Below are positions 4,494-14,336 of a DNA stretch of 64,000 nt, one piece after another. Below the pieces are notes generated by a model. The model worked only from the letters and a program-made list of their open reading frames with translations. It searched no databases and had not been told where the DNA came from. A program made the position numbers and the translations under genes. This DNA is from a virus (taxonomy: Duplodnaviria; Caudoviricetes). Every line of letters begins with the position of its first letter. Position 1 is the first letter of the stretch. The stretch covers positions 1 through 64,000 of the IMG/VR virus record IMGVR_UViG_3300028888_000101, one strand, 5' to 3'.

Positions 4494-4533
4494 AAATCAT
4501 TGTAATTCTAATATTATAACAAGGAGTAAAATT

Positions 4534-7826: not shown

Positions 7827-8012
7827 ATGACATATATTAAATGCGATAGGTGTGGGGCACAGATACATCCATTAGATAATCAATCAGATATTACTGTCAT
7901 GGCAAATTTCGAAGTTCCAGTAGCTAATGCAAGAACATCACTTGATTTATGTGAAACTTGCACTAAGCAGTTTTATTCACATTTTATGAAGAATCATTAT
8001 AAGGAGCAATAA
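7827..8012 (+). CDS. zinc-ribbon microprotein
   Basis: CDRCG...LCETC. Confidence 0.7.
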   Translation: MTYIKCDRCGAQIHPLDNQSDITVMANFEVPVANARTSLDLCETCTKQFYSHFMKNHYKEQ

Positions 8013-9725: not shown

Positions 9726-9964
9726 GTGAATGGATTAATCCTATCGGTACGACAAATGATACTGAAGTGAAGGGTATTCCGTTAAGTGAACCTAGTTGTG
9801 CTATTCCTTGTGCAGTTTGCGGTAAAGCGATATCATTAACTCAGTCAGAAGCAAGATATGCTACATTCCGATTGTGTGATGAATGTATTAAAGCAATTAA
9901 GTTTGCAAAAACATTAATGAAGAATAATCCTAATATGAATATTGATGGAGATGACGGAAAATGA
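9722..9964 (+). CDS. zinc-ribbon protein
   Basis: CAVCG...LCDEC. Confidence 0.7.
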   Translation: MSEWINPIGTTNDTEVKGIPLSEPSCAIPCAVCGKAISLTQSEARYATFRLCDECIKAIKFAKTLMKNNPNMNIDGDDGK

Positions 9965-10143
9965 AAGAGTATGCGTTCGTTGTAACAATACCTGTAGGTA
10001 GGGGTAAGAGTAATGAAGATAAGGAACAGGTAGATAAACTTTCTAAATATCTTAACAACGGTTATGTTGTTACCCACATTACAAGTTCAGTACTTCAAGA
10101 CAATATGTATGTGTATCATTGGCTAGAAAAGGAGACAAAATAA
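9961..10143 (+). CDS. DUF4177-like microprotein
   Basis: YLNNGYVV...YHWLEKE; resembles the core of 2193..2453. Confidence 0.6.
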   Translation: MKEYAFVVTIPVGRGKSNEDKEQVDKLSKYLNNGYVVTHITSSVLQDNMYVYHWLEKETK

Positions 10144-10564
10144 AATGTGATTTACTTATACAAAAGTAACCGGAGATAAAAGAAAATGAATAAAGATGAA
10201 GCACGTTCAGCTGTTATGGGTGCAATTTCTATGGCACTTAAAAACCCTACACTACAACAAGGATTTGAGATTATCTGTAAGAATCTTGCCGAACTTGAAA
10301 AAGAAAATGCAAAACTGAAAGAAAAATTAAAGCCAGAGAATTGTTTAAAATTATTGGCAAAAGATGGCTATATAAAGTTTACAAGCGAACAACTCACCAA
10401 AGCAGAAAAAATAATTGAGTTACTTCTTTCTGATAATAGAATAATGAAAGCACAATTTGAATCAGAAGAACAAGCAAAAATATGGTTTGAGCATATACAT
10501 CAAGCAGAGCAATTCTTATTGGCTAGAAAAGGAGACAAAATAAAATGAGATTTACTTATACAAA
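10118..10564 (+). repeat. 47-bp direct repeat pair (10118-10164 and 10518-10564) bracketing one gene
   Basis: attggctagaaaaggagacaaaataaaatg(t/a)gatttacttatacaaa, one mismatch, 400 bp apart. Confidence 0.95.
10186..10548 (+). CDS. mosaic-family coiled-coil protein (ELEKENAKLK/QLTKA/AEQFL)
   Basis: Modules and RBS string shared with 31126..31842. Confidence 0.8.
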   Translation: MNKDEARSAVMGAISMALKNPTLQQGFEIICKNLAELEKENAKLKEKLKPENCLKLLAKDGYIKFTSEQLTKAEKIIELLLSDNRIMKAQFESEEQAKIWFEHIHQAEQFLLARKGDKIK

Positions 10565-11213: not shown

Positions 11214-11247
11214 TATTCAATTAGAAATTCTAATATTAAAATAAATT

Positions 11248-11333
11248 GGTTGGTTAGTTTAACTGGCAGAACACCGGAGACGTATCCTGCAAGGTTCCAT
11301 CCGGAGATTCAGGTTCAAGTCCTGAACGAACCT
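11248..11333 (+). tRNA. atypical tRNA-Cys-like element with a 21-nt anticodon loop region
   Basis: Acceptor GGTTGGT/ACGAACC (one mismatch), D stem GTTT/GAAC, anticodon stem CCGGA/TCCGG, T arm TCAGG-TTCAAGT-CCTGA, U73; CTGCAAG lies inside the expanded loop. Confidence 0.7.
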
Positions 11334-11338
11334 ATATT

Positions 11339-11415
11339 GGTTCTAACAGACTCTCGGCAATTAAGCTAAGGAGCACTCAAAGGGGCGATGGGTTTTAGTT
11401 TCGCACTTAGAACCA
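11339..11415 (+). ncRNA. degenerate cloverleaf-like RNA
   Basis: Terminal stem GGTTCTAA/TTAGAACC with three weak internal arms; no T-loop consensus. Confidence 0.4.
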
Positions 11416-11419
11416 TTTT

Positions 11420-11520
11420 GGTGAGGTAGCTCAACGGGAAACCAAGGCAGAGCTTCGGTGATTGAAAGGGATATTTTCATCTGAATACCCTTAGTGGAGG
11501 TTCGAGTCCTCCCCTCACCT
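11420..11520 (+). tRNA. atypical tRNA-like element with expanded D loop and rebuilt central arm
   Basis: Perfect acceptor GGTGAGG/CCTCACC, D stem GCTC/GAGC with a 17-nt loop, T arm GGAGG-TTCGAGT-CCTCC; central AAGGG..CCCTT arm. Confidence 0.7.
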
Positions 11521-11522
11521 AT

Positions 11523-11638
11523 CCTTATTTTATACGTTTCACACAGGGTTACAGTGAGATAAACGTATAAGGCATTTTCTGTTTTGTCTTCCGGTAGGAA
11601 ATATCGGTTAAGTTTGGTAGACGTACCAACTAACAGAA
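11523..11638 (+). ncRNA. two further structured RNA elements
   Basis: TTATACGTTT/AAACGTATAA long hairpin; TTCTGTT/AACAGAA stem enclosing two hairpins. Confidence 0.5.
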
Positions 11639-11659: not shown

Positions 11660-12025
11660 ATGGTAATTGCAGTTGATTTTGATGGAACAATCACTGATAA
11701 AAATGTTTTCCCACAAATTGGAGAGATGAAAGAATATGCTCTTGAAGCAATTCATAATATTCAGGCTGCTGGAAATAAAATTGTTTTGTGGACTTGTCGG
11801 GAAGGATATTATCTTGATGAAGCCAGAAAATGGTTGAATGAACATGGGATTGATTTGGATTTTTATAATTACAGTCCTTATCAGCTGCAGTCAAGAAAGA
11901 TTGTTGCAGATGTTTATATTGACGATAAGAATGTATTCATGGTTGATGATGTAGATTGGCATAAGATTGAGGAATATATACTTAATCTTGCTGATAGAAA
12001 TGCTGTAATTTATTCAGGAGTGTAA
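11660..12025 (+). CDS. HAD-superfamily hydrolase (small phage type)
   Basis: IAVDFDGTI (DxD motif I), LWTCR (motif II), RKIVADVYIDDKN (motifs III/IV). Confidence 0.9.
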   Translation: MVIAVDFDGTITDKNVFPQIGEMKEYALEAIHNIQAAGNKIVLWTCREGYYLDEARKWLNEHGIDLDFYNYSPYQLQSRKIVADVYIDDKNVFMVDDVDWHKIEEYILNLADRNAVIYSGV

Positions 12026-12028
12026 ACT

Positions 12029-12292
12029 ATGTTAGATTACAAAGGAATATTGAATCATTACAGAGAAGGCTGTAAGACAGATGATGAACTTAGAGCTAAG
12101 GTTACACCATTTATGAAGTTCTTGTCTTATCTTGATACAGCTGGTGAGATGCTTAAACATGCAGAGGCTTGCTGCAGAGCAATTCCTGATGAGTTTGGTC
12201 TTAAGGAACTCAAATGGAAAGTAGCTGATATGAGTGCAGCTCTTGATGAGTTCAGTGGTGATAGTGTAATAGAGGATATGAAGAACGCATGA
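12029..12292 (+). CDS. hypothetical protein
   Basis: RBS, packing. Confidence 0.7.
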   Translation: MLDYKGILNHYREGCKTDDELRAKVTPFMKFLSYLDTAGEMLKHAEACCRAIPDEFGLKELKWKVADMSAALDEFSGDSVIEDMKNA

Positions 12293-13129: not shown

Positions 13130-13360
13130 ATGAACAAAAGACTTCTCAGTTATGCTAAACTTCTTAAAGAGAGATTACTTAATGACGGTTGTACATTTAA
13201 TAATCAGAAACAATCTGAATTTGGCGTTATACAAGAATATTACAGAAACGGTATAGATTCTAAAATCATAGAACATACGGTAAACAGTATATCTTGCCAG
13301 TACAGACTTGAACTTGGTAAAGACATAATAAAGATATTTTTATATATGGAGAGAGGATGA
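13130..13360 (+). CDS. hypothetical protein
   Basis: RBS-like AGGTGG. Confidence 0.6.
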   Translation: MNKRLLSYAKLLKERLLNDGCTFNNQKQSEFGVIQEYYRNGIDSKIIEHTVNSISCQYRLELGKDIIKIFLYMERG

Positions 13361-13677
13361 CTTGTACAGACATGATTGAAGAGATAGTTGAACTTGCCAC
13401 TGTAAGATATAAGAAACTGTCTAAGGGTAGCAAAGAGTTCGACCTTATCAATATGCACAAAGAAGTCGTAATAGACGGTATTCCTTTTCATTATTGGCGT
13501 GAGTACGGTGTCTATAAGGTATGTGAGTATCTTAAAGAGAAAGTACCTGAGGCTGATATAGAATGTGTGCTTGACGGTAATGATTCTAATATCGTTATTA
13601 CACTTACAGACGAAGAGGAGAGAAATCTTAATCCTAAACTTTGTCACTTACTTAAAAACTTTTGGTCTGTTTCTTAG
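13357..13677 (+). CDS. hypothetical protein
   Basis: ATGA overlap, GGAG. Confidence 0.7.
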   Translation: MTCTDMIEEIVELATVRYKKLSKGSKEFDLINMHKEVVIDGIPFHYWREYGVYKVCEYLKEKVPEADIECVLDGNDSNIVITLTDEEERNLNPKLCHLLKNFWSVS

Positions 13678-13698
13678 CAGATTCTAATATTATATTAA

Positions 13699-13762
13699 TG
13701 ACATGTTTTTATGCATGACACCTCCTTCGGACCTTTGTACTGTCAGTATGAAGGTCCTTTTT
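13699..13762 (+). ncRNA. candidate small RNA 1 with anti-Shine-Dalgarno CACCTCCTT
   Basis: Promoter motif at 13681, CACCTCCTT at 13719-13727, terminator GGACCTT/AAGGTCC plus T5. Confidence 0.55.
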
Positions 13763-13795
13763 ATTTTCAAAAATCTGATTCTAATATTATTAGTG

Positions 13796-13923
13796 TAGTT
13801 ATCTTGGTGTATCCGTATTTTCCCTCCCACCCACGGATATGTCATGTGATTACCTCCAAATGTTTTCGGATACCCTGTTGTCTGTTTTGTTCATTTTATC
13901 GGGCATCAGGGTATCCTTTTTTT
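13796..13923 (+). ncRNA. candidate small RNA 2 with C-rich loop and GATTACCTCC
   Basis: Promoter motif at 13778; hairpin TATCCGT/ACGGATA with CCCTCCC loop; terminator GGATACCCTG/CAGGGTATCC plus T7. Confidence 0.6.
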
Positions 13924-13977
13924 AACTTTACTGTCTGAGATATAATTCTATTATTAAAGTTATAAAGGAGAAAACTC

Positions 13978-14145
13978 ATGGAAGAAAAAACTTTTGCTCA
14001 GTGGTGGAAAGATAACGAGGAAGATGTTCTTGCTAATTTCCCTCACTATTCGGATGTAGAAATCATTAAACGACTTTGCCTTGATTGTTGGAAGACACAG
14101 AACACAAACTGTGAAATCAAAATGGCACAGCTTAGTGAGGTGTAA
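13978..14145 (+). CDS. small hypothetical protein (55 aa)
   Basis: Promoter motif and AAGGAG RBS. Confidence 0.65.
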   Translation: MEEKTFAQWWKDNEEDVLANFPHYSDVEIIKRLCLDCWKTQNTNCEIKMAQLSEV

Positions 14146-14147
14146 CA

Positions 14148-14336
14148 ATGGATGAAGAAAAACCTAATTTGATTCCTTGTAATTGGCAGGAATGTAAGAA
14201 CAACAAAGACTGGTTCTATGTTGGTTGTATTAATCAGAAAGTAAACATTTGGAAATTGGCAAAGAAGAAACACATAACTCTTATACAGTTGTTTCAGTCT
14301 TGTCCATACTGTGGCGGCAGGGTGGTAATGAAATGA
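14148..14336 (+). CDS. Cys-rich microprotein
   Basis: CxWxxC...C and CPYCG. Confidence 0.65.
   Translation: MDEEKPNLIPCNWQECKNNKDWFYVGCINQKVNIWKLAKKKHITLIQLFQSCPYCGGRVVMK

Follow-up and report, generated by a model that had tools for sequence, protein, structure and literature searches.

The window analysed here, that is, the whole stretch of 64 kb, comprises the first 64 kb of an IMG/VR virus record of 83,475 bp (referred to as G000) with an estimated completeness of 59% and a G+C content of 34%. Based on a gp20-like portal protein and a tail sheath protein, this record represents a distant T4-like myovirus. The nearest isolates by portal protein are distant T4-like myoviruses with 23-27% identity, among which the Firmicutes ones score best, and in the Pfam and PHROGs annotation most proteins of the record fall into no family and none points to a host. 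No DNA relatives of the window were found in the phage nucleotide collection; near-identical DNA is present in gut metagenomes from sheep and other ruminants, and bovine gut runs match partially.

The locus is a 300-nt gap (13678-13977) between two plus-strand ORFs (13357-13677 and 13978-14145). This gap contains two promoter-to-terminator units, each of which opens with an exact copy of the 13-mer GATTCTAATATTA (at 13680 and at 13777). The second unit, small RNA 2, occupies 13777-13923 on the plus strand and would give rise to an RNA of ~125 nt beginning at ~13795, while the neighbouring small RNA 1 reproduces nine bases of the 16S tail (Table 1). Three of the 12 CCTCC sequences on the plus strand of the 64 kb lie within the 137 nt between 13721 and 13857. 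The original prediction had described small RNA 2 as a promoter-to-terminator unit of ~125 nt with a hairpin and a C-rich loop, and all of these features are found where it had placed them.

Table 1. Features of the small RNA locus and the tRNA-like copy of the hairpin; positions refer to the window unless another sequence is named.
Feature	Position	Strand	Basis or remark
Small RNA 1, neighbouring unit	13680..13767	+	GATTCTAATATTA copy 13680-13692; CACCTCCTT 13719-13727; terminator 13729-13757 followed by T run
Promoter-like motif GATTCTAATATTA of small RNA 2	13777..13789	+	Enriched; retained before the RNA in relatives
Extended 5' stem-loop, outer stem UAGUUAU/GUGAUUA	13796..13852	+	Minimum-energy fold; outer stem in close relatives only
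C-loop hairpin, 12-bp stem (3 G.U pairs), 16-nt loop	13805..13844	+	Fold; match to model R1; covariation
Invariant loop core CCCTCCCACCC, includes CCUCC	13822..13832	+	Positions 1-10 identical in 17/17 copies
Linker with second anti-SD-like stretch (CCTCC 13853-13857)	13846..13867	+	Single-stranded from 13853 in the fold
Intrinsic terminator, 10- and 6-bp stems and seven T	13868..13923	+	Fold; relatives have unrelated terminator hairpins at the same place
Separate promoter-like motif AATTCTATTATTA of the next gene (13978-14145)	13944..13956	+	Third copy of the motif, two changes
tRNA-like copy in G004	L069:1452-1560; record IMGVR_UViG_3300028888_000198, about 11,930-12,035	+	Predicted fold

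The predicted fold of small RNA 2 has a free energy of -39.4 kcal/mol (z = -5.7), and none of 200 shuffled sequences folds as well. In the C-loop hairpin, 13805-13816 pairs with 13833-13844 and encloses a loop (13817-13832) that reads ATTTTCCCTCCCACCC (= AUUUUCCCUCCCACCC). The hairpin is recognised in the window by the covariance model R1 described below (13810-13839, 32.5 bits, E 1.7e-07), and the loop core is present as a single copy in the 83-kb record, even when up to two mismatches are allowed. Both the loop and the linker from 13853 onwards are unpaired in the minimum-energy as well as in the centroid fold, in agreement with the proposal that the RNA displays two CCUCC-containing stretches, one in the loop and one in the linker. 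Around the second of these, GTCATGTGATTACCTCC is located at 13841-13857; its GUGAUUA is paired in the minimum-energy fold and only CCUCCAAAUGUUUUC is single-stranded. As had been noted from the sequence, GAUUACCUCC and the 16S tail GAUCACCUCC are one base apart; the genomes of the candidate host family, considered below, have GGAUCACCUCCUUU as the tail. The unit ends with a terminator in which 13868-13877 is paired with 13907-13916 and followed by seven T (13917-13923).

In metagenome contigs, strain differences relative to the window (13889-13917) cluster in the inner stem and loop of this terminator; they are substitutions (13889, 13903 and 13906-13908) and single-base deletions (13906, 13915 and 13917). 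The same contigs have zero differences in the C-loop hairpin. As for RNA evidence, one metatranscriptome among 21 runs has a contig of 151 nt, which covers 14142-14292 only; RNAs as small as this one cannot be seen in assembled contigs and usually go missing from such libraries.

The motif that opens both units is enriched, with 23 matches compared to 6.6 expected, a number reached by none of 100 shuffles. Throughout the 83-kb record, an 11-mer of the motif sits at a short and constant distance, 5-15 nt, ahead of Shine-Dalgarno (SD) sites, tRNA-Gln and tRNA-like genes; from this position a few bases before such elements, it behaves as a promoter -10 region. Because the motif has no conserved -35 partner and a simple sigma-70 scan makes no call, we can only infer that the transcript of small RNA 2 starts at ~13795. 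The copy of the motif at 13944 implies that the next gene need not rely on read-through of the small RNA 2 terminator. The 11-mer, TTCTAATATTA, is present exactly or with one change at 4506, 5573, 11228, 13682, 13779, 13946, 19894, 22651, 33158 (minus strand), 43159, 43401, 53405 (minus strand) and 60853 of the window and at other sites up to 81 kb of the record. It lies ahead of many genes, tRNA-Gln and tRNA-like genes, and resembles a phage-specific promoter type, comparable to the late promoters of T4. Behind one of its copies, the interval 11228-11530 holds two tRNA-like sequences with enlarged anticodon regions; 11420-11520 is called as a tRNA by Rfam (36 bits) and ARAGORN calls neither of the two sequences.

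Judged by comparative sequence analysis, small RNA 2 is a real gene for a non-coding RNA that has been retained in a clade of large, uncultured T4-like phages of the rumen. Relatives were gathered by means of homologues of the flanking 106-aa protein in IMG/VR and a large protein collection, so that the RNA itself was not used as the query. Seven homologue contigs (L004, L048, L049, L051, L054, L058 and L060) carry an RNA unit at the same place; the loop core CCCUCCCACC is present in all seven, and their stems have no sequence in common. Three more distant relatives (L005, L006 and L053) have no such unit at this place, and in L036, where the place is likewise empty, the loop is found elsewhere in the record. 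Pattern scans gave further members (L040, L041, L044, L045, L015, L167, L009 and L063) as well as a copy in G004. Looser scans for variants of the loop returned none among the matches listed and added at least one member (L167). Finally, the covariance model R1 was built from six hairpins of equal length, as MAFFT was unable to align loops of unequal length. In 415 kb of fetched sequence from rumen-phage contigs, R1 identifies 17 copies, one per genome, including exactly one each in G000, in the complete 142.8-kb relative G002, in G003 and in G004. The core CCCUCCCACC is unchanged in all 17 copies, and the eleventh position of the loop is C in every copy except that of L004.

The stem of the hairpin is conserved by compensatory change. 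In the R1 alignment, 99.1% of the stem cells are paired and each of the seven stem pairs has changes on both sides, with a covariation score of 1.346 compared to 0.274 for shuffled partners and 0.03-0.16 for slid partners. This alignment was fitted to the model and thereby favours the structure. A count of our own over 11 independent stems agrees with it and gives 77 of 77 cells paired compared to 39.5 +/- 5.3 with shuffled partners. Moreover, 16 of the 162 stem pairs are G.U on the plus strand and would be A.C on the other strand. Thus, the molecule that folds is the plus-strand RNA rather than DNA or a minus-strand transcript. Together with its own promoter motif and terminator, this conserved structure bears out the original assignment of a separate non-coding RNA gene on the plus strand.

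What varies between members are the stems, the terminator hairpins and the 5' part of the loop, which has 2-6 nt and never contains G. This is the reverse of the earlier expectation that seeds would differ between related phages against a constant promoter and terminator: it is the loop seed that stays the same, and stems, linker and terminators vary. The second display is loosely kept. It reads UACCUCC in the window and CACCUCU, CACCUCC, GCCCUCC or AAUCUCCUUA in other members, and L060 has just ACCUGA; a short xCCUCx core of the linker recurs in most members with different flanks. The longer string GTCATGTGATTACCTCC, which had been read as complementary to a start site (SD, 7-nt spacer and AUG), is kept in near-identical strains only (L044 and L051). 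L045 already has ACUCC in this string, all other members have unrelated sequence around the short xCCUCx core, and the complementarity to an entire start site is most readily taken as a coincidence or as a trace left by the local stem. The tandem arrangement with small RNA 1 exists in the window, and in this respect the prediction was right, but it is not a trait of the family, being confined to the window, L044 and L045; L051 and L058 have an ORF of 70-75 aa at the place of small RNA 1.

In a scan of the whole window, no Rfam family reaches its gathering score at small RNA 2, and a search at E up to 10 assigns it to no family either. The only matches to Rfam 15 models are weak, sub-threshold ones on the terminator (RNA-OUT, 26 bits with a gathering score of 41; ncr1241, 19.6 bits with a gathering score of 60). 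A literature search returned no paper that describes small RNA 2 or phage anti-SD RNAs of this kind. Going by sequence comparison, small RNA 2 represents a new family of phage RNAs, which stands out by its invariant 11-nt loop, by scaffolds that can be exchanged and by having no targets in the phage that carries it.

In contig L068 (G002, about 9,950-10,300, minus strand), three or more short promoter-to-terminator units stand in a row, and each consists of TTTCTATAATTAA followed by a hairpin and a T run; the C-loop RNA is the middle unit, its neighbour has no CCUCC, and the row looks like a small-RNA island. At L009:3830-3940, the family member lies inside a longer outer hairpin that also holds GAAGGAGAUUAAUAUG and a frame of three codons (MLS, stop), such that an SD-like site and the anti-SD loop share one RNA.

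The loop is found on three kinds of scaffold. In type A, represented by the window, the loop hairpin is followed by a linker and a separate terminator. In type B (L015, L167 and L040), the RNA begins with a 5' single-stranded xACCUCCx stretch and the C-loop hairpin doubles as the terminator; in L063, the C-loop terminator hairpin closes an ORF of 39 aa. The copy in G004 has the hairpin as the long 'anticodon arm' of a cloverleaf-like fold, which lies 50 nt behind a true tRNA-Asn and has a 6-bp acceptor-like stem and a UUCAACU T-loop in the minimum-energy prediction (z = -2.6). This scaffold matches neither the tRNA model nor ARAGORN, which call the neighbouring tRNA-Asn alone. Modelled in this way, the fold in G004 is perhaps a tRNA-like scaffold for the loop that is cut out by tRNA-processing enzymes; in view of it, the two tRNA-like sequences at 11228-11530 may be display scaffolds, too. 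That a single unchanging loop is combined with exchangeable bodies suggests that the loop is the effector.

Based on these data, we suggest a model for the function of small RNA 2 that we favour while granting it a little less confidence than doubt. In this model, small RNA 2 is a trans-acting sRNA with a C-rich seed that is aimed at GGAGG-type sites of the host. The working part would be the long unpaired hairpin loop with the invariant CCCUCCCACC(C), which may be assisted by the second, looser anti-SD-like stretch (xCCUCx), while stems, terminators and the whole scaffold would be interchangeable. The loop would base-pair in trans with G-rich sequences of the SD type (GGAGG, GGGAGG) and, as a result, block the loading of ribosomes. 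Small RNA 2 has the features of a trans-acting anti-SD sRNA, i.e. a promoter and a terminator of its own, no coding potential, a conserved structure and an unpaired CCUCC-type seed, and its loop probably pairs with G-rich ribosome binding sites (RBSs). Host messages would be more likely targets than phage messages because the RBSs of the phage, mostly AAGGAG(A), pair poorly with the loop. We infer that the RNA is transcribed, that it pairs with RBSs and that these belong to the host; for the mechanism, this is the most economical reading.

A weak hint to the host is provided by one MAG, Eubacterium sp. (G001), in which a relative of the portal protein (67% identity) and a second related phage contig are present; this assignment rests on a single MAG and may be a binning artefact. 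GGAGG is present in 24.5% of start regions in 140 kb of other G001 contigs compared to 11.8% in the phage, and 18% of the G001 start regions compared to 3.5% of those in the phage pair with the loop at -10 kcal/mol or better, a host-phage contrast that is suggestive only, since the underlying gene calls are crude and a difference in G+C content (39.7% versus 34%) confounds it. Start sites with a 9-11-nt complement of the loop were found neither in the MAG nor in 81 genomes of its family. In these genomes there are 23 occurrences of the exact 11-mer compared to 10 for the control, always in coding or repeat contexts and never at a start site, and the 9-mer occurs in the MAG only in the phage contig and at one coding site. 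One genome of the candidate host family (G054) has four copies of a repeated element that holds GCGGGTGGGAGGGGCACCCC (L087, L097, L100 and L102); this element, which has no relation to the phage RNA, is probably mobile or a repeat. The result at start sites weighs against the model of an sRNA directed at host RBSs: a loop of 11 nt that never varies exceeds what a generic CCUCC seed needs, yet no RBS with a complement of 9-11 nt was found.

In the main rival explanation, the loop and the stretches that resemble the 16S tail would be a decoy or sponge bound by a protein, which would be titrated or recruited. Candidates are a host endoribonuclease toxin with anti-SD-like cleavage sites, a KH-domain protein (Era, KhpA/B or NusA) that recognises C-rich RNA or the 3' end of 16S rRNA, Rho, or a phage protein. 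The loop consists of three C triplets, CCC-U-CCC-A-CCC, within a G-free loop of 12-17 nt, and 10-11 invariant loop bases on freely changing stems are typical of hairpins that are recognised by proteins. The same explanation accommodates the lack of a complementary RNA in the phage genomes, the candidate host and the 81 family genomes, the ability of the loop to sit on any scaffold, and the copy of nine bases of the 16S tail in small RNA 1. Moreover, MazF-type toxins with cleavage at U^CCUU and in the 16S anti-SD have been described (PMC5408214). On the other hand, no test names a candidate protein, no gene has been shown to travel with the RNA, and the CCUCC core with its second copy in the linker is more simply explained by pairing with SD sites. 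On balance, we regard a protein decoy as unlikely, although it is the strongest competitor of an sRNA that pairs with host RBSs.

The original prediction had instead seen in the tandem units a module that silences translation of the phage's own genes, and small RNA 2 might in this case control when a certain class of phage genes is expressed, by blocking their RBSs. This is quite improbable given the pairing data. In the 83-kb record, no site complementary to the loop (GGGTGGGAGGG-like) is present at up to two mismatches; in the complete G002, such complements are confined to the RNA gene itself and to coding sequence, and none lies in a start region. The best pairing of the loop with start regions is -14.9 in G000 compared to -16.5 +/- 2.0 for shuffled seeds and -17.6 in G002 compared to -17.0 +/- 1.6, i.e. 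the RBSs of neither phage pair with the loop better than with shuffled seeds. Among start regions in G002, 41% have AAGGAG, 10% GGAGG and 0.9% GGGAGG, and AAGGAG(A) sites form only four bp with CCCUCCC. The partial match at the start of 7827..8012, which had been flagged as possible chance, is real and no better than that of shuffled seeds, and the ORF 7827-8012 has no homologue in three relatives that carry the RNA. We also rejected the best duplexes of the whole RNA within the phage (49416-49460, inside a coding region, and the start region at 7827), which are not conserved and do not go beyond shuffles.

Two observations speak for an action on phage genes. The G002 copy has a 5' module whose pairing with phage start regions, at -10.2, is slightly better than that of shuffled seeds (-8.8 +/- 0.7). 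In addition, in L049 (3170-3290) and L058 (1505-1610) the second stretch reads AAUCUCCUUA and has 9 nt of complementarity, through AAUCUCCUU, to the RBS of the next gene downstream, AAGGAGAUU. Because AAGGAGA is a common phage site, this complementarity may be chance; going by these two contigs, the second stretch may have a role on phage genes. Across G002, G004 and G006, matches to the complement are the RNA gene itself, coding sequence or one RBS in an unrelated 46.7-kb phage. The latter is UGGUGGGAGGGUAAAUG in the complete phage G006 (L070:1497-1511, minus strand), which matches the loop complement at 10 of 11 bases and belongs to a 47-aa membrane-type ORF between genes for an SSB-like protein and a DNA methyltransferase-like protein. 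G006 shares the 106-aa protein and lacks the RNA, and the match may be chance or a lead to targeting across phages.

Less probable still is that the unit acts in cis, as a nut/put-like hairpin or a specialised terminator that controls downstream read-through with no free RNA being made. The unit does lie just behind a promoter and before a terminator, or is itself the terminator, and the copy in L063 ends the 39-aa ORF in the manner of a 3' UTR terminator. However, the next gene has its own promoter motif, the loop in G004 sits on a tRNA-like fold behind a tRNA, and in type A the hairpin is 5' of the terminator while in type B it is the terminator, and therefore the loop has no fixed position relative to the polymerase.

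Among conserved cellular RNAs, 23S rRNA alone contains a 9-nt complement of the loop, in helix 76 (AGGUGGGAGGC). The loop's CCUCCCACC could pair with GGUGGGAGG in the 5' strand of this helix, at the base of the L1 stalk, and so disturb or mark the assembly of the 50S subunit, which we consider a long shot. The 23S genes of the candidate host family have GGAUAGGUGGGAG(G/A)C, e.g. in four copies in the complete genome G055, and an invariant partner in rRNA would explain an invariant loop. Against this, only 9 nt match, with a probability of roughly 0.05 for a chance match somewhere in about 4.5 kb of rRNA; the invariant C on either side of the 9-mer faces C and A, and therefore selection does not extend the pairing; in mature ribosomes, this site is double-stranded; and the match was found after other ideas had been tried.

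Lastly, that the region encodes a 51-aa protein on the minus strand (13845-13690) is practically out of the question: the ORF with its perfect GGAGG, 7-nt spacer and ATG does exist in the window, but it is cut to 33 aa in the near-identical L044, differs in start and frame in L045 and L051 and is absent or unrelated elsewhere, it would run against two plus-strand terminators, and the G.U pairs place selection on the plus-strand RNA. Ribosome footprints on this ORF had been named as one finding that could overturn the assignment of an RNA gene; the ORF is not conserved across members, which favours that assignment.

A broader reading, possible if rather on the doubtful side, is that CCCUCCCACCC is a portable, invariant 11-nt 'head' that is put on any scaffold and aimed at a conserved component of the host rather than at messages of the phage. 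In one version, host RBSs of the GGAGG/GGGAGG type would be silenced selectively and the phage would escape through its AAGGAG(A) sites. In the other version, the loop would be a bait for a host factor that recognises or cuts the anti-SD tail of 16S rRNA. If true, either version would be an RNA-based device for host takeover or counter-defence as yet undescribed for phages.

To our knowledge, few regulatory RNAs encoded by phages are understood, and almost none in phages of anaerobic gut and rumen bacteria. Small RNA 2 offers a clean case, with strong comparative support, a sharply defined working part of 11 bases and, unusually, three kinds of scaffold for the same loop. Should the loop act on host RBSs or on a host factor that reads the anti-SD, these phages would bias translation towards their own messages by RNA alone. 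If only a few genes are fine-tuned, small RNA 2 would be one more family of sRNAs with a C-rich seed, still worth cataloguing.

The proposed sRNA directed at host RBSs can be compared with three groups of known regulators. Among phage antisense RNAs by which an RBS is blocked, c4 of P1/P7, sar of P22 and OOP of lambda have a defined complementary site in the same phage. Small RNA 2 shares with them its small size, its phage origin and a proposed action on translation initiation through pairing, and differs from them in that its loop has no complementary site in the 83-kb record or in the complete relative. The second group comprises RsaE/RoxS and the UCCC-loop sRNAs of Firmicutes (hairpins of RNAIII, LhrC, SprD), which are cellular or island-borne and have known regulons. 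Here, as in the model proposed for small RNA 2, several unpaired C-rich stretches in loops or linkers pair with G-rich SD regions and long complementarity is not needed. By contrast, small RNA 2 has no sequence or model similarity to RsaE/RoxS (RF01820) or to the UCCC-loop sRNAs, and its seed is longer and invariant.

The closest likeness in design is to the Cuckoo/CcsR RNAs of Alphaproteobacteria (RSs0680, ar14), which keep CCUCCUCCC in the loops of highly variable stems and have been read as anti-SD regulators (PMC4615179). Small RNA 2 likewise has one fixed, C-rich, anti-SD-like loop motif (that of Cuckoo being CCUCCUCCC), stems that vary through compensatory changes (7/7 pairs in the small RNA 2 family) and a modular build that ends in a terminator, and for both the occlusion of RBSs has been proposed; this is a likeness of design and not membership. 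However, the motif of small RNA 2 is CCCUCCCACCC, and each RNA has one loop hairpin rather than the two to four of Cuckoo. Moreover, the loop is found on a terminator and on a tRNA-like scaffold as well, and the RNA is carried by phages of a host that is probably of the Firmicutes type. The ar14 model (RF02344) has no match at the gathering score in the window and none at E up to 10 in 13500-14100. Thus, motif, copy number and model match all set small RNA 2 apart, and we suggest by analogy that it works like a Cuckoo or a UCCC-loop sRNA while being a member of neither.
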